DNA of 64,000 bases from the NCBI GenBank assembly GCA_035526025.1, contig DATLDE010000018.1:11292-75291 (forward strand), in the 5' to 3' direction. Of the stretch, positions 3 through 26,930 are shown one piece after another. The notes below the pieces were generated by a model that was not told the DNA's origin, made no database searches, and worked only from the letters and a program-made list of their open reading frames with translations. Source of the stretch: Candidatus Limnocylindrales bacterium (GTDB taxonomy: Bacteria; Patescibacteriota; Microgenomatia; Levybacterales; UBA12049). The position numbers were made by a program, and so were the translations under genes. Position 1 is the first letter of the stretch. Each line of letters begins with the position of its first letter.

Positions 3-662
3 GGTAATTTTTCGGGGTGGGAGAAATGGAATGGATATGCAAAGATTGATAGAGAAACACATATTCAAAAAACTAAAAATTTTATTGAAAAAAATCCTGG
101 ATTATTTCAGGACGGCGATTTATTCAGTTCATGTCCGGAGTGTGAAAACGGGGAAAAATTGGACAGAAGTAACCCTATTCAGATTAATGAATACCGAACA
201 TTTTTGATCAAAGAGTATAATGTTACAAAAGAAGCTTTTAAAAACATTAATAAACAAGTTCCATCTAATTACTATTCTATGAACGGTGATATAGCATTTC
301 TTATGATGGATCGAAAAACAACAGCAGCATTTGACGGGTTGGTGGTAATTGATCATTATGTCAAAGATACAGCACGTCTTGAGCGTGATATTAAGGCTTT
401 AGCTCTGAAAAGTGGTGGAAAAATAGTATTGGGTGAATTTGGCGCTCCAATTCCTGGTATACACGGTAGTATGGATGAAAGGGTCCAAAAAAAGTGGATA
501 GAAGATGCTTTACAAAAAATATCAGGCATTCCTGATCTTATTGGTATCAATTATTGGGTAGGAACAGATGGATCAACAGCTATATGGAAAGACAATGGGG
601 TCCCAAAGCCAGCAGTCGAGGTACTCACCCGTTATTATAAGGCTTCAAATTCTTCAGATTGA
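3..662 (+). CDS. 5'-truncated glycoside hydrolase, clan GH-A-like C-terminal fragment (open to window edge)
   Basis: Frame 3 is open from nt 3 with no upstream stop, so the gene starts outside the window. The GEFGAP motif resembles the nucleophile region of the full-length paralog at 57020-58183 (FITETGW). Confidence 0.45.
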   Translation, partial: GNFSGWEKWNGYAKIDRETHIQKTKNFIEKNPGLFQDGDLFSSCPECENGEKLDRSNPIQINEYRTFLIKEYNVTKEAFKNINKQVPSNYYSMNGDIAFLMMDRKTTAAFDGLVVIDHYVKDTARLERDIKALALKSGGKIVLGEFGAPIPGIHGSMDERVQKKWIEDALQKISGIPDLIGINYWVGTDGSTAIWKDNGVPKPAVEVLTRYYKASNSSD

Positions 663-738
663 TTATAGTATATAACTATTGACACTTCTTTAAATTTGTG
701 ATATAGTCCATAAACATCTACATAGATGTCTAAACCCT

Positions 739-1281
739 ATGTTAAAAAAAAGAATTACATTTGCTATAAGTCTTATTCTGTTAACAATTTTGTCGGCATT
801 TCCTGCGCATGCTGAAAGACTCCCAAATTTTGGATCATGTCTTAATCCTCAAGGTAAAGTGCTTGCGAGTTATGAAACAGGAAAACATGGTATTGTTGGA
901 AGAAAAGATCTGGTAACAGGATCCGACAGCGTTTATCAGTCTTCTGACAAGGGTGTTACACAATGTTTTTGTCCGCTAGATGGGAATGGAATTCAAACAA
1001 ATTGGTTTGATGTATCAAAGCTGAAATCAGCTGATATAGAAACACTTAAAAAAGAAGGCTGGACATATTTTGCAACAGGATCTGACTGGGGACTCAAGGA
1101 TGTTCCATACCTAGCCAAAAATACAGACTATGCATGCAAAAAAACTGCACAAAAAAAAGGAGACGTTCAAAAAGTCCTAAGTCTTGCAAGCACCGGTGAT
1201 TCTTTGACTATCTATATATTTATTCTTTCAGGGGCTACATTTCTAATAAGCGGGATGGTCCTTCGAAAAGTTAGTAAATAA
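739..1281 (+). CDS. secreted protein with C-terminal sortase sorting signal LASTG, a hydrophobic segment and a basic tail (RKVSK)
   Basis: N-terminal signal peptide (AHA cleavage-like). C-terminal tripartite sorting signal. Lies immediately upstream of the sortase gene. Confidence 0.6.
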   Translation: MLKKRITFAISLILLTILSAFPAHAERLPNFGSCLNPQGKVLASYETGKHGIVGRKDLVTGSDSVYQSSDKGVTQCFCPLDGNGIQTNWFDVSKLKSADIETLKKEGWTYFATGSDWGLKDVPYLAKNTDYACKKTAQKKGDVQKVLSLASTGDSLTIYIFILSGATFLISGMVLRKVSK

Positions 1282-1286
1282 TTCAT

Positions 1287-1826
1287 ATGAAACTGCTCTC
1301 AAAACTGTTCATATTTATTGGTATCCTCTGTTATATCCTCGGTATTTATAATATATGGCTAATCAATGATCCAAAGCGTTTGTCCTTTCAGAATTATACT
1401 TATGCTCAAGTACCTCAAAGCGTTGAGAAAGTGCTTCCAACTAAAATAAGTATAAGTAATGTAAATATTACTCTTCCTCTGATTCCATCGTCAATTATTG
1501 ATGACAAATGGGAGACTACAGATATCGGAGCCTCTTATCTTTCTTCATCTCCTGTTCCTGGGGAAGTGGGAAATAGTGTGATATACGGGCATAATTGGGC
1601 GAGTATTTTCGGAAACTTGATTAGTATAATGCCGGGTGATGAGGTATTGATTGAATATCAAGATAAAACCACCAAAACATTCATCGTGAAATATACCTCA
1701 ACTGTAAAACCAGAAACTACTAGTATTTTGGCACCTACTTCTGACAAGAGAATTACTTTATATACCTGCAGTGGATTTCTGGATTCTGAAAGATTTGTAG
1801 CAGTCGCTATCCTCAAAGACAACTAA
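1287..1826 (+). CDS. sortase family transpeptidase
   Basis: N-terminal TM anchor. Conserved His in IYGHNWASIFGNL and catalytic Cys in the TLxTC motif (ITLYTCSG). About 180 aa. Confidence 0.8.
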   Translation: MKLLSKLFIFIGILCYILGIYNIWLINDPKRLSFQNYTYAQVPQSVEKVLPTKISISNVNITLPLIPSSIIDDKWETTDIGASYLSSSPVPGEVGNSVIYGHNWASIFGNLISIMPGDEVLIEYQDKTTKTFIVKYTSTVKPETTSILAPTSDKRITLYTCSGFLDSERFVAVAILKDN

Positions 1827-2266: not shown

Positions 2267-3415
2267 CTACAGCTCGCATTGCGTTATCGCTTCTGCCGTA
2301 CAAGTATCTGTGTTAGCGCCACCATCAGCAGCGTCACTACCGGCTTGACCATCTAATGTGTCATCGCCATCTTCACCTTTCAAAGAGTCGCTATCAGCGC
2401 CCCCATAGAGTTTGTCATTACCCGTTCCTCCGGCTAATGCGTCAGATCCTCCTTGGCCTAGCAGGACATCGTTTCCTGCTCCACCTATTAGATTGTCGGA
2501 ACTATCTCCACCGACTATACAGTCAGCGCCTCCTTTTCCATCGACATAATCACTTCCACCTTTGGCCAGGATTAGGTCATTTCCTTCTGTGCCGATTATG
2601 TAATCACTTCCGTTTGTTCCTTCTATTTTGTTATATACAAGATTTTGATTACATTCTGTGGGTACTGGGAATGCATTCACTGGATTTGCTACTACTGTTA
2701 TTTTGTAGACGTTTCCAGCTCCGTTACTCCATGCAGATTCCTCAAATAGAGCATTTCTTGCCCTAACTCTCAGATAATAGTCCCCAGGTGGTGTTCCCGG
2801 AGTTGGAATCTCAGAAGCTGTTAACCAACCGCTTTGAAACACAGAGGTTGTATATCCTGCGTCAGAAAAAGCTTCATATTGGTATTGAAACGGTGGATTA
2901 GAGCCTACTGAATCAGTCCAATCTACCTTAACTAGAGCTGCCTGTGTGACAGTTGCTCCATTTGCCGGAGTGTGAATCCTAGGAACTGATATTCCTTTTG
3001 TTATACTCCAGGTTCCGCTTCGTGGTCCACCGAAATTATCTGTCCAGGTTCCACTCACAGTACCATTTGCAGCAATCGTACCTACCATATTCATAGTTGT
3101 TCCTACTGCGCCCACATCATATACAGCTGTGAGATTTATTGAATTTCCTGTTTGGCTACCAGATGTAACATTCCAATGATAAGTATCTCCGCCTGTTGCC
3201 GGATACCCGCCATTGCCTGTTACAGCAGTGCCGGATTGGGCAAGAGTAGCATGGTGAACGTAAGGCGTAACTGAAGTATCAGGATTCAAAAAGAAACTGA
3301 TTTCGTAATTACCCGTTACATTCCATGGCGCTGCAGCGAAAGCTGGCAACACCGAAACAGCAACTAGCACAATCGATGCTATCATAGCTGTAAAAAGTTT
3401 TAAAATTTTATTCAT
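2267..3415 (-). CDS. secreted protein with C-terminal RTX/hemolysin-type Ca-binding GGxGxD repeats
   Basis: Signal peptide. C-terminal tandem repeats GGSDYVDGKGGADCIVGGDSSDNLIGGAGNDVLLGQGGSDALAGGTGNDKLYGGADSD. Start moved to the internal ATG (MNKIL) because it has the GGAGGTG SD at correct spacing. Confidence 0.65.
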   Translation of the reverse strand: MNKILKLFTAMIASIVLVAVSVLPAFAAAPWNVTGNYEISFFLNPDTSVTPYVHHATLAQSGTAVTGNGGYPATGGDTYHWNVTSGSQTGNSINLTAVYDVGAVGTTMNMVGTIAANGTVSGTWTDNFGGPRSGTWSITKGISVPRIHTPANGATVTQAALVKVDWTDSVGSNPPFQYQYEAFSDAGYTTSVFQSGWLTASEIPTPGTPPGDYYLRVRARNALFEESAWSNGAGNVYKITVVANPVNAFPVPTECNQNLVYNKIEGTNGSDYIIGTEGNDLILAKGGSDYVDGKGGADCIVGGDSSDNLIGGAGNDVLLGQGGSDALAGGTGNDKLYGGADSDSLKGEDGDDTLDGQAGSDAADGGANTDTCTAEAITQCEL

Positions 3416-3548
3416 TTCTATCACCTCCTTTCACCCGCTGAATCTTTACGCGAAAGCGGGTTTCGCTCAAAATTTCGACTATTCGTTCATGATAGTTTTC
3501 ACAGATATCAGTCAGGTTAGGATAACCTAATAAACTCGTAAGAGTAAT

Positions 3549-9674: not shown

Positions 9675-10664
9675 TTAATTTTTGGACTCAAGACTTTTAA
9701 ACAAAACTACAATAAACGATATAAATGGAATAGCAAGTAGCGCCCCGGAAATGCCCATCAAATTTGTACCAATCATAATACCGAGAATTACAACAACCGG
9801 ATTTAAGCCTACTGCTTTTTGCATAACTTTAGGAACAAGAATCTGATTCTCCACAGCCTGAATCAAGACGTATAGTGTAACTACTGCCATTGCCTTGGTT
9901 GGAGAAATGGTAAGTGCGATAACAATAGCAGGAATAGATGAAAGTATAGGTCCGATTGTGGGAACAACTTCAAGTAAGCCGGCAAACAAAGCAAGTGGAA
10001 GTGCATAGGGAAGACCCAAGATAGTAAGACCTATCCAGGAAAACAAACCTATAAATACACAGAGTTGTATTTGCCCTCGAAGCCACGCGCCTAACTTAAA
10101 GTTAATCTGATCCAAAGTTACCAATGCTTTTTCACGAGCATCTTTATGAAACAGATTAGCTACAAATCTTTTAAATGTGTCTTCATACATCAAGAAATAA
10201 AGACTTACTACAGCAACTGTGATAATGGAAAACAGTCCCCCGAACACTTTTGTAGTTACATTAAATGCACTTTTGCCAAAAGTCTCAAATTCGGTACTGA
10301 TATATCTCTCGATTTGTTTAGGGTTGATAGAAACTCCAAATACATCAGCTGATCTGTCGATAAATTTGGGAAAATTTGTGACAAGAGACTGGATCTGATT
10401 TGCGACAAATGGGACAAGGGGGAGAATAAGAAGAAATATCGCAATAATTATCCCAAAATAGGGTATCAAAACTGCTACTACTTTATTTACCCCTCTTTTT
10501 CTAAGATATTCAACCATAGGGAGAACTGCTGCCATGATAATATATGAAAGAAAAATGGAAACAATTATTTCTCTTGTTTGAACAACAAACCAAATTGAGG
10601 CAATAATAAATAAGGCAAAAATCACCTGATTTTTTAATAAATACTTAATGAATTGATGAAACAT
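9675..10664 (-). CDS. AI-2E family transporter (UPF0118/PerM)
   Basis: About 330 aa with 7-8 TM helices and typical AI-2E layout. Paralog at 33700-34683. Confidence 0.8.
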   Translation of the reverse strand: MFHQFIKYLLKNQVIFALFIIASIWFVVQTREIIVSIFLSYIIMAAVLPMVEYLRKRGVNKVVAVLIPYFGIIIAIFLLILPLVPFVANQIQSLVTNFPKFIDRSADVFGVSINPKQIERYISTEFETFGKSAFNVTTKVFGGLFSIITVAVVSLYFLMYEDTFKRFVANLFHKDAREKALVTLDQINFKLGAWLRGQIQLCVFIGLFSWIGLTILGLPYALPLALFAGLLEVVPTIGPILSSIPAIVIALTISPTKAMAVVTLYVLIQAVENQILVPKVMQKAVGLNPVVVILGIMIGTNLMGISGALLAIPFISFIVVLFKSLESKN

Positions 10665-10788
10665 GCTCTTACTTCAAACTATAATACATATACATTTTGA
10701 ATTCAATAAGAAGTATTTTAAAATTTAAATATATGTAAATTGCACAATGTCTGCTTAATTGATAAAATAGAGTTCTGCTTTGCATGAA

Positions 10789-10861
10789 GCGCCCATAGCT
10801 CAGCTGGATAGAGCACGTCGGTTCTAACGACATGGTCGGGGGTTCGAATCCCTCTGGGCGT
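10789..10861 (+). tRNA. tRNA-Arg (anticodon TCT)
   Basis: GCGCCCATAGCTCAGCTGGATAGAGCA start typical of Arg. Anticodon loop GTTCTAA. One C-A mismatch at the top of the anticodon stem. Confidence 0.75.
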
Positions 10862-10874
10862 ACTAATCCAAGAT

Positions 10875-11579
10875 ATGAACTCAAAGCTTATTAAATTCAT
10901 AAATGAAATACCTGGTTGGCTTAGTGAGAAGGAAGCTATATTTTTGTCACAAGTTGCTAAAAATAGCCAGAAATATAAGGGTGATATAGTTGAAATTGGA
11001 AGCTTTCATGGCAAATCAACAATTTGCCTAGCACAGGGAAAGGGAAAAGTGTATGCAATCGACCCACATAAAGGATATGTTGAAGCGAATAAGGTCTTTC
11101 CTTCCAGTTATACTAAATTTTTAAAAAGCATTAATGAAGCCCGAGTTAATAAAAAAATTGTTCCTCTTGTAATGAAATCCAAAACAGCCTCCAAAACATG
11201 GAAAAGGAAAATCAGATTACTTTTTATAGACGGCCTTCATGATGAGAAAAACGCTTTCCAGGACTATGAACTTTTCAACAATTATGTAATTGAAAACGGA
11301 ATAGTTGCAGTTCATGATAGTTTTCTGAGATGGTGCGGTTCAGAAAAAATGGCAATGAAAAAAATTGTAAATTCTTCAGAGTATTATAAGATTGGAATCG
11401 TAGGGTCAATTATTTATGGTGTTAAAGGTCAGGGTACTCTCTCAGATAAAATTATAAAATTAGCCTTGAGTGTGGCAATCAATACATTAGTTAAATTAAA
11501 TCACCTAAAACTAACAATCTTTAACCTGCCTGAGATACTAAAAACAAAAATTCTCCCTCGTTACAATATAGACCTATAG
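10875..11579 (+). CDS. class I SAM-dependent methyltransferase (Methyltransf_24 / TylF-like)
   Basis: VEIGSFHGKST glycine-rich motif and LLFIDGLHDEKNAFQDYE (DGxH) motif. Confidence 0.55.
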   Translation: MNSKLIKFINEIPGWLSEKEAIFLSQVAKNSQKYKGDIVEIGSFHGKSTICLAQGKGKVYAIDPHKGYVEANKVFPSSYTKFLKSINEARVNKKIVPLVMKSKTASKTWKRKIRLLFIDGLHDEKNAFQDYELFNNYVIENGIVAVHDSFLRWCGSEKMAMKKIVNSSEYYKIGIVGSIIYGVKGQGTLSDKIIKLALSVAINTLVKLNHLKLTIFNLPEILKTKILPRYNIDL

Positions 11580-11617
11580 TTGCAATATTCTCTGATTTTT
11601 GGTATACTGATTTAATT

Positions 11618-12166
11618 ATGCGCATTGCAGAAGTTAATCTTATCGTACATCCAGATTATGATGCTCTTTATAACGGGGACACATCAGCAACCTTGCACCC
11701 TTTGCAGAAGGGCTTAAGAGCTGCATGGTCCCAACGTACATCAGAGATAGCATTAAGAGAGAATTCATTATTAATTTATGTATCCGCACTACAAGCAAAA
11801 GACTTAAGAAAGCCACGCTCATACCTTAAAGGAATAAAGAAAGATGATGTGAGTAGAATATCGGATTGGAGAAAAATGCTAGGAGATAGATTAATCGTTT
11901 TTCCAAAAGAACCTTCTGTAACACGCACAGTGCTAGCAGATACTTTTAATCAAAGAGGGTATTCCTTGGATCAGGAAAATGCAATTTTAGTAGCTTACGG
12001 TGAATATGAGGAATTATGCGTTAAGGGTGAGAGTGAATTATTTCAAGATAGTCTGGGAATTCCAGATTCAAGAACATTTATAGACAGAAGACAATCATTA
12101 GCTTATTGTGATTATGATGCTGAAGCACAAATGATATCACCACGTAGACAGAAGGAATATGTCTAA
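11618..12166 (+). CDS. hypothetical protein
   Basis: 182 aa ORF in the operon. No recognisable motif. Confidence 0.4.
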   Translation: MRIAEVNLIVHPDYDALYNGDTSATLHPLQKGLRAAWSQRTSEIALRENSLLIYVSALQAKDLRKPRSYLKGIKKDDVSRISDWRKMLGDRLIVFPKEPSVTRTVLADTFNQRGYSLDQENAILVAYGEYEELCVKGESELFQDSLGIPDSRTFIDRRQSLAYCDYDAEAQMISPRRQKEYV

Positions 12167-12181
12167 TAAATTATTTTAATT

Positions 12182-13420
12182 ATGCTAATCAACAATATAC
12201 ATGTATCTAAAAGTAAAAACCTGATTCATTTGTCAGCCAATATTAAATTTAAGAACCAAAAAGCCGACCGAATGTATTTTTCTACGAGTAGCATAAATGC
12301 TTCTTTAATTTCTTATGACTACTCCCCTTTTCTGGCAAGTGTACTTTTGCCATGCATGAAAAAAGGTGAAGATATAGTTATTGACGGAACTGTCTCAAAA
12401 AAACTACTGGTAAATATTGAAAAGATTATGGATCTTGTCACCTCATGGGGCGTAGGGTTTAAACATATTAATATTCAATCAGGGATTACAAATCACGCTT
12501 ACTTAAAAAACAAAAGAACTTCTGCTGCTTTTTTCTCAGCAGGAGTTGACTCTTTTTATACGTATCTAAAACATAAAAAAACAAATAGTAAAATACAAAA
12601 TCTTATTCTTATCCACGGGTTTGATATACCTCTTGAAAATAAAAATCTATTTACAAAGACAAAAAAAATAGTTGAAAGTATTGCCCTTGAAGAAAAGATC
12701 AAAGCAATTTCTGTCACAACCAACGCCGGGGAAATTGTCGAAAAAGTGCTGATATGGGATCTTTCGCATGGAGGAGTTCTAGCTGCAGTTGGATTATTTT
12801 TGGGAAAAGGAATAGGAAGAGTCTATATCCCGGGGGGTTTGAAAAAAAGTGAACTATTTCCCTACGGAACATATCCCGAATTAGATAAACTATGGTCAAC
12901 TGAGAAAACCCAATTTTTGCATGATGGCACAGAGTACAATAGATTGGGAAAAATTATGCACGTTGTTTCTAAATCTGATTTGGCACTTAAGCACTTGAGA
13001 GTATGCACGCAAAATATAAAAGGTAACTATAATTGCTCGCGATGTTATAAATGTCTCATCACTATGATAGGGCTAGTCTGTTCCAATTCCCTGCAAAGTG
13101 CAAAAACTTTTAAAAAGCTTGATCTTAATAATGTTAAAAATATGTACTATGATTACAGGTTGAAATATAATCTACAAGGCGAGGCGAATTTAGAAATATT
13201 GAAAAAAGAAAATAGAGAACATGAATTGCAGGAAGCAATCAAATACAGTCTTGAGAATTCAAAAAAGCAAAAAATTCACAAAAAGTTATTTGAAGTAATC
13301 GCTTCATTTGATCAAAAATATAATGAAAGAAGACTATATAGATTTGTTTTTAAAATGAATAAAAAGCAGGATAGAAATTTGATCTTTAAAACACTTGGGA
13401 AGATAGGAGCGTTAAAATGA
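12182..13420 (+). CDS. PP-loop ATP pyrophosphatase, QueC-like with Cys4 zinc cluster, atypically long (412 aa)
   Basis: PP-loop SAGVDS (FSAGVDSFYTYL) and a C-x9-C-x2-C-x2-C cluster (CTQNIKGNYNCSRCYKC) matching QueC zinc-ligand spacing. It carries roughly 110 aa extensions at both N- and C-terminus. Confidence 0.5.
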   Translation: MLINNIHVSKSKNLIHLSANIKFKNQKADRMYFSTSSINASLISYDYSPFLASVLLPCMKKGEDIVIDGTVSKKLLVNIEKIMDLVTSWGVGFKHINIQSGITNHAYLKNKRTSAAFFSAGVDSFYTYLKHKKTNSKIQNLILIHGFDIPLENKNLFTKTKKIVESIALEEKIKAISVTTNAGEIVEKVLIWDLSHGGVLAAVGLFLGKGIGRVYIPGGLKKSELFPYGTYPELDKLWSTEKTQFLHDGTEYNRLGKIMHVVSKSDLALKHLRVCTQNIKGNYNCSRCYKCLITMIGLVCSNSLQSAKTFKKLDLNNVKNMYYDYRLKYNLQGEANLEILKKENREHELQEAIKYSLENSKKQKIHKKLFEVIASFDQKYNERRLYRFVFKMNKKQDRNLIFKTLGKIGALK

Positions 13421-13968
13421 ATAGCTTGCTAGTAATGTTATTAACTATAGGAATAATACTTATTAAAATATTCTGGATTAATACAGAAATCAGATATTTC
13501 AAGAATAGATTGAACTTTGAGATGTTCAAAACAAATTTTATCGAACTTGTTATTCTGGTCTCACAAATTTTTGTAGTTTATTATTTTCCGCTTCCTAGAA
13601 CACCTTATGATTTTGTTATCTCGTCGCTTGGAATCATAATGTACGTATTAGGTATGGGATTTGCTGTATGGGCAAGAATTACTATGAATAAGGTGTGGGG
13701 CGTGCCTGGTGAATTCTCTCAAAATCAAACTCATTTCGTTACAACCGGCCCATTTCAGATCTCAAGAAATCCAATTTATCTAGGTTTTATATTTATTTAT
13801 TTTGGATTTGCTATAGCTATTAATAGCTGGCTGATTTTTCTAAGAATTCCACTGTTAATTTACTTTTATAAAGCAGCAAAAATTGAGGAAAAGATACTGG
13901 AGAAGAAATTTGGGAAAAAATACCTTACGTATAAATCTAAAACTCCCCGATTTTTACTTGGTGTCTAA
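13417..13968 (+). CDS. isoprenylcysteine carboxyl methyltransferase (ICMT)/PEMT-family membrane methyltransferase
   Basis: Polytopic membrane protein with GPFQISRNPIYLG motif. Start overlaps the upstream stop. Confidence 0.65.
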   Translation: MNSLLVMLLTIGIILIKIFWINTEIRYFKNRLNFEMFKTNFIELVILVSQIFVVYYFPLPRTPYDFVISSLGIIMYVLGMGFAVWARITMNKVWGVPGEFSQNQTHFVTTGPFQISRNPIYLGFIFIYFGFAIAINSWLIFLRIPLLIYFYKAAKIEEKILEKKFGKKYLTYKSKTPRFLLGV

Positions 13969-13970
13969 TT

Positions 13971-15317
13971 TTATTTAAAACGCTTTTTGATTTCAATTGT
14001 CAGAAACCAGGGAATTGTCATAGCTAAGATCAGGAGATCCAACCCAATTAATCTTGAGATAAGTAATTGTCTGCTATATAGTCTATACGCCCTGTCATAA
14101 GTTATGGTGCCATGAGCGATAAGAATATATAGAGGAGGTAACCATAGCTTGGGGAAAAACCTATTTAATATAGTATCTACTTTATCTTTGATAATAAAGT
14201 ATAATGATCTGCTTTTATCACGAAGTTCTATGAAGTTATCTCTTGCCAAGATCGCCAATGTATCTGTATCTATTTTTCGATTTTCCTCAAACTCTTTAAA
14301 TGCATGAGTTAAATTGTGGCTGTACTTTTTCATAAGCTCTGACACCATCAGACAATCCTCCATTGCTGCACATACTCCCTGGCCATAAAAAGGAATCACA
14401 CCGTGCGCCGCGTCCCCAATTAGTAAAATAAAATCTCTATAGTGCCAGGGATTGGTAAGAATTGTAGTAAATTTCCCAGTTGGTTTATTTAGAAATGAAT
14501 TAACTATTTCAGGGAGCAAAAATTTTAAGTCAGGAAAATTCTTAACTATATACTTTGTAACTATGTCTTTGCTCTTTAGAGTTTCAAAACTATTCTCACC
14601 CTTAAGTGGTAAATTTATCATCAGTGTATTTGATTTATCAGGATTTGGAAAAGCGATAAATAGCGAATTTCTGCGAGGCCATGTATGAGTGGCTGAAGAT
14701 TTTAGCTTTAACAATTTACTTTTTTGAGGGGTTACCTGAACCTCTTTATACCCCCAGTTTTCAAGGGCCAGGACATTTTTTTCATTCTTCTTGTTATTTA
14801 TTATCTTTCTAACAGTAGAATTAACTCCATCAGCACCGATTACAAGATCTGTTAATTTGGTGAACTTTCGTTTTGAAAGGATATTTCGTAACGTGATTTT
14901 TTTATTTGCTTTATCTATGTTCTCCAGTCGAGTATTAAAATTAATTTTTATATTGGAATTTTTTTCAACAATATCTAAAAGCTTACTGTTTAGAATATTA
15001 CGGTTTACAGTGTAGAGGACCTCAGTATCATTTGAGTCATATGGATCATATATATTCCGATTATCAAGATAATGCGCAACATTCCCTTTTGTCAGAACAG
15101 ATATTTTTTTAATATCTTTCCACAGGTCAATTTTCTGAAGAGCTATGATACCTCTTGTGTAAAGAGTGATGTTAAATGATCTGCCGGAGCTCTTTTTTTG
15201 TTTTCTGATATCTGACCTTGCTTCATAAATATCTATTTTATAATCTTCTTTTGCAAGACAAAGCGCCATCAGACACCCTGACATTCCAGACCCGATTATG
15301 GATATATGCTTTTTCAT
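13971..15317 (-). CDS. FAD-dependent monooxygenase, kynurenine 3-monooxygenase (KMO)-like
   Basis: N-terminal GxGxxG (IIGSGMSG), GDAAHGVIPFYGQGVCAAMEDC motif, C-terminal hydrophobic anchor as in KMO. Confidence 0.7.
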   Translation of the reverse strand: MKKHISIIGSGMSGCLMALCLAKEDYKIDIYEARSDIRKQKKSSGRSFNITLYTRGIIALQKIDLWKDIKKISVLTKGNVAHYLDNRNIYDPYDSNDTEVLYTVNRNILNSKLLDIVEKNSNIKINFNTRLENIDKANKKITLRNILSKRKFTKLTDLVIGADGVNSTVRKIINNKKNEKNVLALENWGYKEVQVTPQKSKLLKLKSSATHTWPRRNSLFIAFPNPDKSNTLMINLPLKGENSFETLKSKDIVTKYIVKNFPDLKFLLPEIVNSFLNKPTGKFTTILTNPWHYRDFILLIGDAAHGVIPFYGQGVCAAMEDCLMVSELMKKYSHNLTHAFKEFEENRKIDTDTLAILARDNFIELRDKSRSLYFIIKDKVDTILNRFFPKLWLPPLYILIAHGTITYDRAYRLYSRQLLISRLIGLDLLILAMTIPWFLTIEIKKRFK

Positions 15318-15385
15318 TCAGGATATAATTATATCATGTTACTATAGGTCTGTCAATTAATTAAAGTATAATTTATAATCCTTTT

Positions 15386-15754
15386 ATGAATGAGTTATTC
15401 AGGTTTACAGGAATAGTAATAAGAGGTAAAAACCGGGGAAAAGCTCTGGGTTTCCCGACAGCTAATACCGACATAAGTAAATCTGCAATGCCTGGGATAT
15501 ACATATCAAAAACTATTTACGACAAAAATGAATTTTCATCAATAACATTTATAGGCGAGGTTAAGACTTTTAATGAAAGTAATTTCGCAGCCGAAACATA
15601 TATACTTGATTTCAATCAGGATATATATGGTGAAGAAATTCAAGTTCATATTCTGAAAAAGCTACGTGATAATCAAAAATTTGAATCTGTTGAAAACCTG
15701 ATCCTCCAAATGAAAGAAGATGAAAAACAGACTAGAAAGTATTTCAGAGAATAA
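15386..15754 (+). CDS. monofunctional riboflavin kinase (RibF C-terminal-like domain only)
   Basis: GKNRGKALGFPTAN motif. The 122 aa length leaves no room for an FAD synthetase domain. Confidence 0.7.
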   Translation: MNELFRFTGIVIRGKNRGKALGFPTANTDISKSAMPGIYISKTIYDKNEFSSITFIGEVKTFNESNFAAETYILDFNQDIYGEEIQVHILKKLRDNQKFESVENLILQMKEDEKQTRKYFRE

Positions 15755-24593: not shown

Positions 24594-26930
24594 CTATTTT
24601 ACATTTTTTTTTCTGAATATAACAAAAGAACCTTTTTCGGTAATGATTTCATATCGATTATCGTGGCGTATTTTCTCTAGTTGTAATTTTTGAGCAATTA
24701 GAGATTGTGGCTGTTCATTTTTATTTGGATAAAATACAAGCACATCTGCTTTCTCAAGTCCTAGAGGAAGTGTAAATAGCTCAAGCCTATGGGCTAAATG
24801 AGAACCTACGTTATTTGAAGCTGCTACGCTTAAATGGGGTGGAATGTCTGATAATTTCTGTTCTAAAAATTTGTAGTCTGGTAATTGTTTATTGATCATT
24901 TCCAGATTTGCATCTTTTGAGCCAGGTAACACTCCTAGCTTATAAGCACTCATCAGGCTTGTTATTAAAATAAAGATTGGCAAAACAAATAGATACTTTT
25001 CCTCTATATATTTTTTGATAATATTCATCCCAAAAATGGCGCTAATAAAAATAAACGGGGTAATTGCAGCGGTATATTGATAATAGATTTGGTGAAGCTG
25101 AGCGTTGTTACTCAAGAGATTAATAGTCAAATCAGCTCCTGCCAATATCAAAAAGAAAGGATATATAAATGATAGATATCCAAGTGGTGAAAAAAGTTGA
25201 GCCAGATAATCAATCTTTTCTTTTTGATAAATTATCTCAAAAACTTTCTGAGGTGAAAATAATATGTTTTTCGCAATTGAAAGCGGACCATCCCCAAAAT
25301 CTGAGTAATAATCAATTGCAAAATGAGACGCACCTAAAGCCTGTGGAATTGCAACAGAAATGAGATAGTAGAATATTCCAAAAGACACAAAAAATATAAG
25401 ACTTCCGAATAATCTTTTTTTGTGATTGAAAAACAACATAACACCAAATAAAGCTATGATCAGCCATATTTGTTCTTTACTGATAGCAGCAAGTAACGCA
25501 AAAATCATAAACAAAACATATTTTTTTCTACTATAGAAATAGTATGTTCCGAGGAGAAAAGTAGTTGCTAGAGTGACTGCGTGAAAGTCATATAGATTTG
25601 CCCTTTGAACACTTGGATTTATAAGATATGCAAAAGCAAATGCAAGTGACAAATTTTTACTGGTAAGCTTGTCTTTGGCAATTAAATAAACAAATATGCT
25701 GCCAAGCGCTACGACAAATGTCTGGATGAATAAAAGCGTTTTAGGATTGGGAAACAATGCGTAAAAAGGAGCGAGAAGAATCAAAAGAAAATCTGCATGA
25801 AATGCAAGGCGTGAGACCATGTCTGCGCCATCAGGATTGGTAAATTGAAATATACGTCCTTGTGTGGTATTCCAGACTGTTTGGGCCATATTTCCTAGAT
25901 CAAACCTGCCTGTATAAAAATGGTCATACCGCAGGAAGCTGATCCAGGAAAAATACGCTATATATATAATTATCAATCCCAAAAGCACAGCTTCATGTTT
26001 GTGATTTGCAACAAGATTGCTAAGTTGACTAACTTTTTTACTTTTTGATTTAAAATATAAATAAGTTATACCCAAAAATATTATCTCAGAAATTATAAGT
26101 ATTATTCTTGAAAAAAGTGCTATGAATGCACCAATTGATGAATTTACAATTTTCGACAATCCGGCAATAATAATTCCTTCTCGTACACCAAATCCAGCGG
26201 GTGTTAAAAGAGAAAGATAACCAATAAGTACTGACAAGACAAAAAACCCACTGAGTTGAAAAAACAATTCAATTGGCAGAATAATTACTGAGCTAATTAC
26301 GAAATAGTTTGCAACCCCAAACCAAAGCAAGGCACATGTACTTAATGCCACCAAGTTCGCATTTTCTGATCTTTCAAATTTAGGTATAAATTTTAAATTC
26401 TGTTGAAAAAATATATATAACAAAACACCAATCAAAACTATGAAAATTATTAATTTTTGAGAAAAATCAGGGACGAAATTGCTAAAACTTGAAAGAACAA
26501 AGGGAAGTGATAAAAGAGAAATAACTGCACACCCAATAACAAAGATTCCAGCTTCAGTTACGATAAGCTTACCCACATTCTTTTTAGGAATACCTTGTTC
26601 TGAAAATGCAAAAGCTCTTCCGAGAAAAGATACTATGCTTCCTGGAATATATCTTTTAAATTCAGATACAGAATAATGATAAGCAGATTGTTTGTAAGTT
26701 ATTTTATTTGAATAAACCTTAAGAAGTCTATGCCAAATATAGCTTCTGAGGAAATAATACACTAGAAAACTAAATATCCCTATCATTAATAAAACTGGAT
26801 TTGCAGCATAAAGCTTACTGGTAAATTCCGGAATTCTTGGAGCTACGAGCTTGATAATAAAGAATAATGCGAGAATAGAAAACGGCCATCCTAAAGCGTA
26901 TTTGAGAATTGAGAATAGTCGGTTCTGCAT
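24594..26930 (-). CDS. large polytopic membrane protein, C-terminal half DUF2079-like
   Basis: 778 aa with more than 20 predicted TM segments. RYDHFYTGRFDLGNMAQTVWN resembles the DUF2079 core. Confidence 0.5.
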   Translation of the reverse strand: MQNRLFSILKYALGWPFSILALFFIIKLVAPRIPEFTSKLYAANPVLLMIGIFSFLVYYFLRSYIWHRLLKVYSNKITYKQSAYHYSVSEFKRYIPGSIVSFLGRAFAFSEQGIPKKNVGKLIVTEAGIFVIGCAVISLLSLPFVLSSFSNFVPDFSQKLIIFIVLIGVLLYIFFQQNLKFIPKFERSENANLVALSTCALLWFGVANYFVISSVIILPIELFFQLSGFFVLSVLIGYLSLLTPAGFGVREGIIIAGLSKIVNSSIGAFIALFSRIILIISEIIFLGITYLYFKSKSKKVSQLSNLVANHKHEAVLLGLIIIYIAYFSWISFLRYDHFYTGRFDLGNMAQTVWNTTQGRIFQFTNPDGADMVSRLAFHADFLLILLAPFYALFPNPKTLLFIQTFVVALGSIFVYLIAKDKLTSKNLSLAFAFAYLINPSVQRANLYDFHAVTLATTFLLGTYYFYSRKKYVLFMIFALLAAISKEQIWLIIALFGVMLFFNHKKRLFGSLIFFVSFGIFYYLISVAIPQALGASHFAIDYYSDFGDGPLSIAKNILFSPQKVFEIIYQKEKIDYLAQLFSPLGYLSFIYPFFLILAGADLTINLLSNNAQLHQIYYQYTAAITPFIFISAIFGMNIIKKYIEEKYLFVLPIFILITSLMSAYKLGVLPGSKDANLEMINKQLPDYKFLEQKLSDIPPHLSVAASNNVGSHLAHRLELFTLPLGLEKADVLVFYPNKNEQPQSLIAQKLQLEKIRHDNRYEIITEKGSFVIFRKKNVK

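Follow-up and report, generated by a model that had tools for sequence, protein, structure and literature searches.

A 64-kb stretch of bacterial DNA, part of contig DATLDE010000018.1 and called the window below (positions are window coordinates), encodes a protein of 412 amino acids, PP412. By its sequence, this protein is placed in a very large, unnamed and unannotated family of PP-loop ATP pyrophosphatases, on the scaffold of QueC but outside the QueC family (PF06508). At the level of the family, the unit is PP412 together with a polysaccharide pyruvyl transferase. On balance, PP412 is probably an ATP-dependent tailoring enzyme that adenylates and amidates a cell-surface glycan, not a nucleoside. 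The PP-loop/QueC scaffold is known; what is new is a family within the PP-loop/QueC-fold enzymes that has its own domain architecture and its own biological context.

The PP412 protein and its family

The gene and its recognizable parts lie as follows:

12182-13420, plus strand: PP412, the 412-amino-acid PP-loop protein of QueC fold, core of the finding
12182-12496, plus strand: N-terminal domain of PP412, amino acids 1-105, with beta-beta-beta-alpha-beta-alpha topology
12536-12553, plus strand: PP-loop motif S119-A-G-V-D-S124, read from the sequence and fitting the SGGxDS consensus
13004-13054, plus strand: Cys4 cluster C275-x9-C285-x2-C288-x2-C291, a putative Zn site of QueC type

PP412 has no Pfam match at E <= 0.1, and its sole match in NCBIfam scored 13.9 bits, which is chance level against a cutoff of 500. 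Neither the sequence by itself nor a profile of 38 sequences retrieved a related structure from the PDB, the few matches being chance alignments to RING fingers. A preliminary description of this DNA had proposed comparison with the profiles of known families, and none of these could be assigned (Pfam, NCBIfam including TIGR03573, and hhalign to QueC).

The AlphaFold2 model of PP412 (predicted local distance difference test score, pLDDT, 93.3; predicted template modeling score, pTM, 0.92) consists of a 105-residue N-terminal domain, a central domain at approximately residues 110-300 and a helical C-terminal tail. A Foldseek search with this model returned the QueC-like proteins ArtA, YcfA and Cap9 among the first matches. 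Considering that the model is confident and that Foldseek agrees with it qualitatively, the central domain is predicted to be an ATP pyrophosphatase domain of the PP-loop type, most similar to QueC, and the modeled fold is that of QueC, a Rossmann-like alpha/beta fold in which the PP-loop follows the first strand. The protein is about 190 residues longer than QueC, with an extra N-terminal domain and a helical tail; the earlier remark that it has almost twice the length of QueC, with additional regions at both termini, agrees with the model. The C-terminal stretch of approximately 110 residues is helical and less conserved. The N-terminal domain is conserved throughout the family and lacks a close relative in structure: its weak matches are to RNase H-like and ASKHA-like topologies, at 6-14% identity and without a functional lead, and the residues conserved family-wide (F50, M59, S72 and W89) do not form an acidic catalytic set.

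The two motifs first noticed in the preliminary description, SAGVDS at residues 119-124 and the cysteine cluster at C275, C285, C288 and C291, contain residues that do not vary in the family. Among 71 diverse relatives from many phyla, no variation occurs at G121, D123, K257, C275, N284, C285, C288, K290 or C291, and S124 is conserved at 97%; the PP-loop and Cys4 cluster of PP412 are not a matter of chance. Across 111 family sequences the PP-loop reads SGGVDS in 60 and SAGVDS in 21, and the C-x9-C-x2-C-x2-C spacing is found in 103. By analogy with QueC, the Cys4 site probably binds Zn.

The family is both large and widespread. A word-indexed search found more than 1,000 homologues of PP412, every named one of which is called hypothetical, and no Pfam domain was precomputed among the 120 homologues listed. 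An exhaustive profile search recovered 8,886 clusters at 50% identity with E <= 1e-3, and 3,462 with E <= 1e-30. A genome scan yielded 551 relatives; the phyla represented are Patescibacteria, Actinomycetota, Campylobacterota, Cyanobacteria, Acidobacteriota, Planctomycetota, Desulfobacterota and Chloroflexota, and the family reaches some archaea, with one relative from a Bathyarchaeota archaeon. The closest relatives are from Levybacteria. In the literature, we found no work that links QueC-like or PP-loop proteins with a polysaccharide or pyruvyl transferase.

Paralogues of PP412 sometimes occur in tandem, as two or three adjacent but separate genes (loci L014, L024, L059, L062 and L069). In addition, five of the ten long proteins scanned (P0121, P0127, P0172, P0204 and P0220) contain two matched stretches and no other domain, and these are probably fused tandem duplicates. 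The tandem copies hint at a dimeric or heterodimeric enzyme.

Is PP412 then simply a divergent QueC? A survey of PF06508 lists three hallmarks of QueC, namely SGGxDS, the zinc motif C(x)8CxxCxxC, and YxQxHxxE, which sits where the 7-deazaguanine pocket opens (PMC13329287). The first is present in PP412, the second occurs as a one-residue variant (x9 instead of x8) and the third is absent. Indeed, YxQxHxxE is found in none of the 111 family sequences, and the corresponding stretch of PP412 reads HGFDIPLEN. PP412 and QueC (PDB 3bl5 and 2pg3) have in common the SGGxDS-type PP-loop, near the start of the catalytic domain, and a C-terminal Cys4 cluster with CxxCxxC, and may also share a reaction in which ATP serves to adenylate a carboxylate that ammonia then attacks; beyond the PP-loop, sequence similarity is undetectable, and hhalign with two PDB QueC sequences aligned 19 PP-loop residues at a probability of 2%. 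The genes queD, queE, folE and tgt were not seen among the annotated open reading frames of the window, where small frames beyond approximately 24.5 kb were only partly scanned, nor among the neighbours in 80 related loci whose open reading frames were called and clustered (10 from Levybacteria, L001-L010, and 70 from outside that group). With no PF06508 match, no YxQxHxxE motif and no que genes seen in the window, PP412 is not QueC. The preliminary description was therefore right that this is not a standard queuosine operon, and its account of an atypical QueC-like PP-loop protein is apt for the fold but does not extend to membership in the QueC family.

The same evidence bears on the broader proposal that PP412 is a true if divergent QueC or another deazaguanine enzyme, either a preQ0 synthase or a protein like Cap9 or QatC, acting on 7-carboxy-7-deazaguanine. 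The PP-loop and a Cys4 spacing near that of QueC would fit, and proteins of the QueC family have repeatedly been repurposed (PMC13329287). Nonetheless, PF06508 gives no match at E <= 0.1, the hhalign alignment is limited to the PP-loop, YxQxHxxE is missing throughout the family, no queD, queE, folE or tgt appeared among the window frames scanned, PADLOC gave no match, and the conserved partners are glycan enzymes (see below) and not deazaguanine or defence genes, so that this proposal seems most improbable. Cap9 and QatC, from type IV CBASS and QatABCD defence, are still useful precedents: they combine the QueC scaffold with extra domains and join a carboxylate to an amine that is not ammonia (PMC13329287). 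PP412 differs from them in having no PADLOC match and no neighbours resembling Cap10, QatA, QatB or QatD, and the cysteine motif of QatC, C(x)19CGxCxxRR (PMC13329287), is also different.

The invariance of all four cysteines might instead be read as the mark of Fe-S-dependent sulfur insertion of the TtuA, NcsA or LarE type, in which a [4Fe-4S] cluster on the cysteines would serve to thiolate an adenylated substrate. The spacing of the cysteines, however, copies the QueC Zn site and is unlike the dispersed three-Cys Fe-S motif of LarE-like proteins (PMC13329287), and no genes for cysteine desulfurase, TusA or ThiS-like proteins were seen among the neighbours. We regard sulfur insertion as very unlikely.

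Pyruvyl transferases and other partners of the family

A lead to function comes from the 70 loci outside Levybacteria. A polysaccharide pyruvyl transferase (PF04230, detected with the hidden Markov model) lies within 6 kb of the PP412 homologue in 34 of them and is directly adjacent in 20, and 19 of 54 adjacent neighbours on the same strand are PS_pyruv_trans genes. In relatives at 48% and 42% identity, the genes are arranged in the order GT4 - pyruvyl transferase - PP412 - GT2 and abut or overlap. Other neighbours include flippases, GT2, GT4 and PMT_2/DUF2206 membrane glycosyltransferases, sugar epimerases and dehydratases, as well as DegT aminotransferase, asparagine synthases and GH5/GH39-like hydrolases. 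The association also takes the form of gene fusions: the PP412 domain is joined to PS_pyruv_trans in three proteins (P0167, P0177 and P0241), to GT2 in one (P0184) and to Methyltransf_11 in another (P0224). A role in glycan modification is favoured because the relatives adjoin or are fused with pyruvyl transferases and glycosyltransferases and have flippases nearby. The preliminary description had left the choice among small-molecule, lipid, glycan and nucleoside pathways; this context favours the glycan and none of the other three. Within the window itself, the cell-envelope genes near the locus (sortase, D-Ala-D-Ala carboxypeptidase and GDPD) also count for a glycan. The partners of the PP412 family are glycan enzymes, while those of QueC are QueD, QueE and FolE.

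Among characterized enzymes, the N-acetyl sugar amidotransferase (TIGR03573; WbpG/LfnA; PDB 8wex) is by analogy the closest to PP412 in biological role, being a PP-loop enzyme from surface-polysaccharide clusters that carries out an ATP-dependent tailoring of the amidation type. Could PP412 be an enzyme of this very type (WbpG, LfnA, PseA), activating an acetamido carbonyl of a glycan or nucleotide sugar and turning it into an acetamidino group, with no action on a carboxylate? The family is indeed found in polysaccharide clusters, sometimes next to a DegT aminotransferase, epimerases or dehydratases. Against this, TIGR03573 gave no NCBIfam match at E <= 0.1, there is no QueC-type Cys4 alignment between the two, the partner genes are different, and the partner that recurs and is fused with PP412 is a pyruvyl transferase, which makes a carboxylate and not an acetamido group. 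An amidotransferase of this type is therefore unlikely, though it is the best placed of the alternatives drawn from known enzymes.

The Levybacteria locus

In the window, PP412 stands among the following genes:

10789-10863, plus strand: tRNA-Arg(TCT) (ARAGORN; Rfam tRNA, 58.8 bits)
10875-11579, plus strand: class I S-adenosylmethionine (SAM) methyltransferase of the Methyltransf_24 family, 234 amino acids (Pfam PF13578, 2.1e-17)
11618-12166, plus strand: 182-amino-acid protein with no match to a known fold or function, directly 5' of PP412
13417-13968, plus strand: integral-membrane SAM methyltransferase of the ICMT/PEMT family, 183 amino acids (Pfam PEMT, 1.4e-15)
13971-15317, minus strand: FAD monooxygenase like kynurenine 3-monooxygenase (KMO), 448 amino acids (PDB KMO matches; Pfam FAD_binding_3)

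The tRNA gene is followed by four plus-strand reading frames, with successive gaps of 11, 38 and 15 nt before the last of them; the distance from the tRNA to the first gene, given earlier as 14 nt, measures 11 nt. The stop codon of PP412 and the start codon of the PEMT gene overlap in the sequence ATGA, with GGAG 8 nt upstream of the PEMT start, and this overlap suggests that the two genes are translationally coupled. The KMO-like gene runs toward the PEMT gene, and 2 nt separate their stop codons.

How much of this arrangement is conserved? All nine Levybacteria loci that extend past PP412 (L001-L009) have PP412, PEMT and a convergent KMO-like gene in this order, an arrangement confined to Levybacteria relatives of at least 53% identity. 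The upstream part varies. Among the ten Levybacteria loci, the Methyltransf_24 gene is present in two (L002 and L010), the 182-amino-acid gene in three, at the same position (L001, L002 and L007), and an adjoining tRNA in three, in both orientations (L001, L007 and L010). The genes further upstream differ from locus to locus and include those for a 2-hydroxyacid dehydrogenase, a beta-CASP nuclease, MarR, HlyD and a polysaccharide deacetylase. The Methyltransf_24 and 182-amino-acid genes and the tRNA are thus variable neighbours and not parts of the unit. The layout of the four-gene, tRNA-linked set put forward in the preliminary description was correct, but as a conserved unit the set does not hold, since among relatives only PP412 and PEMT with the convergent monooxygenase recur, and only in Levybacteria. 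The real unit here is PP412-PEMT, possibly with the KMO-like gene added. For at least 16 PP412 and PEMT homologues the length recorded for the longest contig is identical, and this suggests that they share contigs.

The PEMT gene was found in none of the 70 loci outside Levybacteria, and we rejected PEMT as a family-wide partner, with PEMT homologues of approximately 40% identity sitting in unrelated contexts. The KMO-like gene recurs in two further loci (L045 and L028), at a distance of no more than 6 kb from the PP412 homologue. The idea of a tRNA-linked genomic island was likewise rejected: an integrase is absent, L001 and L007 retain the flanks, and most related loci lack the tRNA.

These comparisons also bear on the possibility that PP412 modifies tRNA, with the RNase H-like N-terminal domain binding RNA, the PP-loop domain adenylating a base (as in TilS, ThiI and MnmA) and the adjacent tRNA being meaningful. 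Many of the fold neighbours of PP412 are tRNA-modifying PP-loop enzymes, and a tRNA gene, tRNA-Arg in the window, is adjacent there and in three related loci. Yet the tRNA is missing from the other seven Levybacteria loci and varies in orientation in the rest, the likeness of the N-terminal domain to RNase H is topological only at its 6-14% identity and is not accompanied by an acidic catalytic set, and both the conserved partners and the fused domains are those of glycan enzymes. We accord tRNA modification scarcely any weight.

The two methyltransferases had been named in the preliminary description, and both assignments are borne out (Pfam 2e-17 and 1.4e-15). The 183-amino-acid protein belongs to PEMT (PF04191), with 58.1 bits against a cutoff of 25. 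It also matches Pfam ICMT at 2.9e-4, under the gathering score, the isoprenylcysteine methyltransferase model of NCBIfam at 8e-10, under the cutoff, and the PDB ICMT structure 4a2n at 3e-3. Its C-terminal SAM-binding region, GPFQISRNPIY...EEKILEKKFGKKY, is kept and aligns to a solved homologue. Its scores for the specific NCBIfam equivalogs (isoprenylcysteine methyltransferase, LmtA and MddA) all lie far below the cutoffs, so that the protein is assigned to the family but to no substrate class. In another locus (L085, 4076-5549), a gene for a Ste24-like Peptidase_M48 abuts an ICMT-like methyltransferase gene, a pair that resembles the eukaryotic CAAX-processing enzymes.

The best PDB match of the 234-amino-acid methyltransferase is 6g7d, a "Methyltransferase domain protein" (5.6e-11), which we take to be a mycobacterial mannoside methyltransferase; we found no paper on the entry. 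The 182-amino-acid protein has no match in Pfam, NCBIfam, PADLOC or the PDB, the last also searched with a profile, and there are 2 matches among 5.8 billion proteins, plus three syntenic homologues, which marks it on this evidence as a lineage-specific near-orphan. We considered whether it might be a degenerate pyruvyl transferase and rejected this, the pyruvyl-transferase model having no match in the window.

The flavin monooxygenase reported on the other strand is more exactly a homologue of kynurenine 3-monooxygenase, with homology over its full length (5.7e-65 over amino acids 3-411 to PDB 6fox/5fn0) and a hydrophobic C-terminal tail; its best NCBIfam equivalog is VioC, at 158 bits against a cutoff of 760. 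This KMO homologue stands in a Levybacteria genome of much reduced metabolism, and it is adjoined by a gene for a stand-alone flavokinase domain of 122 amino acids (15386-15754, plus strand).

A promoter-like sequence, TTGCAA-17-TATACT, lies at 11580-11608 just 5' of the 182-amino-acid gene; it is a consensus match alone, and such matches in the region only modestly exceed the shuffled expectation. The region has no predicted intrinsic terminator, a permissive Rfam scan of 10400-15500 detected the tRNA but no riboswitch or other RNA, and no PADLOC defence model matched any of the five protein-coding genes. Two minus-strand reading frames of 60-71 amino acids at 10669-10900, which overlap the tRNA-Arg gene, are almost certainly spurious.

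The rest of the window, with genes for a sortase, D-Ala-D-Ala carboxypeptidase, UvrA, UvrC, HflX, phosphoglucomutase and PGI, is that of an ordinary Candidate Phyla Radiation chromosome. NCBI files the bin under "Candidatus Limnocylindrales", although every close relative is a member of Levybacteria (Patescibacteria) and the gene content is likewise theirs. Several of the bins from which loci L003, L005, L006, L010 and L012 come are labeled Gammaproteobacteria/Lysobacterales, carry the same Levybacteria-type locus and look mislabeled. The sortase gene and two small Pfam-less proteins occupy 159-1826 (plus strand), approximately 10 kb upstream of the locus, and the same set recurs beside PP412-type polysaccharide clusters in other Microgenomates (L035, L039, L041, L050 and L082); in the window it may be a remnant of a larger envelope locus. 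Adjoining the sortase region is a gene for a 385-amino-acid protein with RTX calcium-binding nonapeptide repeats (2267-3424, minus strand). Further downstream, at 24594-26930 (minus strand), a membrane protein of 778 amino acids combines an LPG_synthase_TM region with DUF2079 and is a possible envelope lipid- or glycan-modifying enzyme.

A proposed step in glycan tailoring

How might a QueC-like scaffold act together with a pyruvyl transferase? In the reading that we favour, tailoring of a cell-surface glycan by PP412, ATP would first adenylate a carboxyl group with release of pyrophosphate, as in QueC, and ammonia or an amine would then displace AMP, turning the carboxylate into an amide. The most likely and most economical candidate substrate would be a pyruvate-ketal carboxylate, the ketal having been placed by the partner transferase on a glycan unit that is lipid-linked or nascent. 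A parallel is offered by MurA-MurB-MurC, where enolpyruvyl transfer from phosphoenolpyruvate makes a sugar-linked carboxylate and an ATP-dependent enzyme makes the amide. The parallel is one of analogy only: MurC is an ADP-forming Mur ligase of unrelated fold, whereas on the PP412 side the carboxylate would be that of a ketal-linked pyruvate and the activating protein a PP-loop enzyme, forming AMP.

In the Levybacteria clade, no pyruvyl transferase lies near PP412, whose gene is instead paired, probably by translational coupling, with that of the membrane methyltransferase. We read the coupling to an ICMT/PEMT membrane methyltransferase as pointing to action on a membrane-anchored substrate, and it suggests that the PP412-PEMT pair works at the inner face of the membrane.

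Several observations weigh against glycan tailoring by PP412. The window of 64 kb contains neither a pyruvyl transferase nor a glycosyltransferase cluster, so that the link to glycans rests on relatives of at most 48% identity, and one relative that is 50% identical, P0065, lacks both a pyruvyl transferase and a PEMT gene as neighbours. The first glycine of the PP-loop is alanine in PP412, and the Cys4 site could hold an Fe-S cluster in place of Zn. The proposed scheme does not account for the KMO-like neighbour. Finally, we know of no glycan modification that consists of an amidated pyruvate ketal.

A bolder suggestion is that the family, which is present in thousands of bacterial lineages and some archaeal ones, carries out a modification that is as yet undescribed: the ATP-driven conversion of pyruvate-ketal carboxylates on cell-surface polysaccharides to an amide, an amine conjugate or a nitrile, the nitrile being proposed by analogy with the second step of QueC. 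Levybacteria PP412 would, as part of this suggestion, have acquired new partners, a membrane methyltransferase of ICMT type and a KMO-like oxygenase. We offer it tentatively, as possible rather than probable.

Pyruvylation, which confers charge, is widespread among capsules, exopolysaccharides and secondary cell-wall polymers, and also anchors S-layer proteins. If the suggestion is true, conversion of the pyruvate ketal would neutralize or functionalize the charge that pyruvylation introduces, and a dedicated ATP-dependent partner of pyruvyl transferases would point to a tailoring step that is uncatalogued in glycan chemistry. Approximately 9,000 protein clusters that are now hypothetical would thereby gain a name and a testable function. 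The PP412 family would extend the re-uses of the QueC scaffold past nucleoside synthesis and phage defence, and in the Candidate Phyla Radiation, whose envelopes are barely known, the PP412 unit would mark a conserved envelope-modification module.

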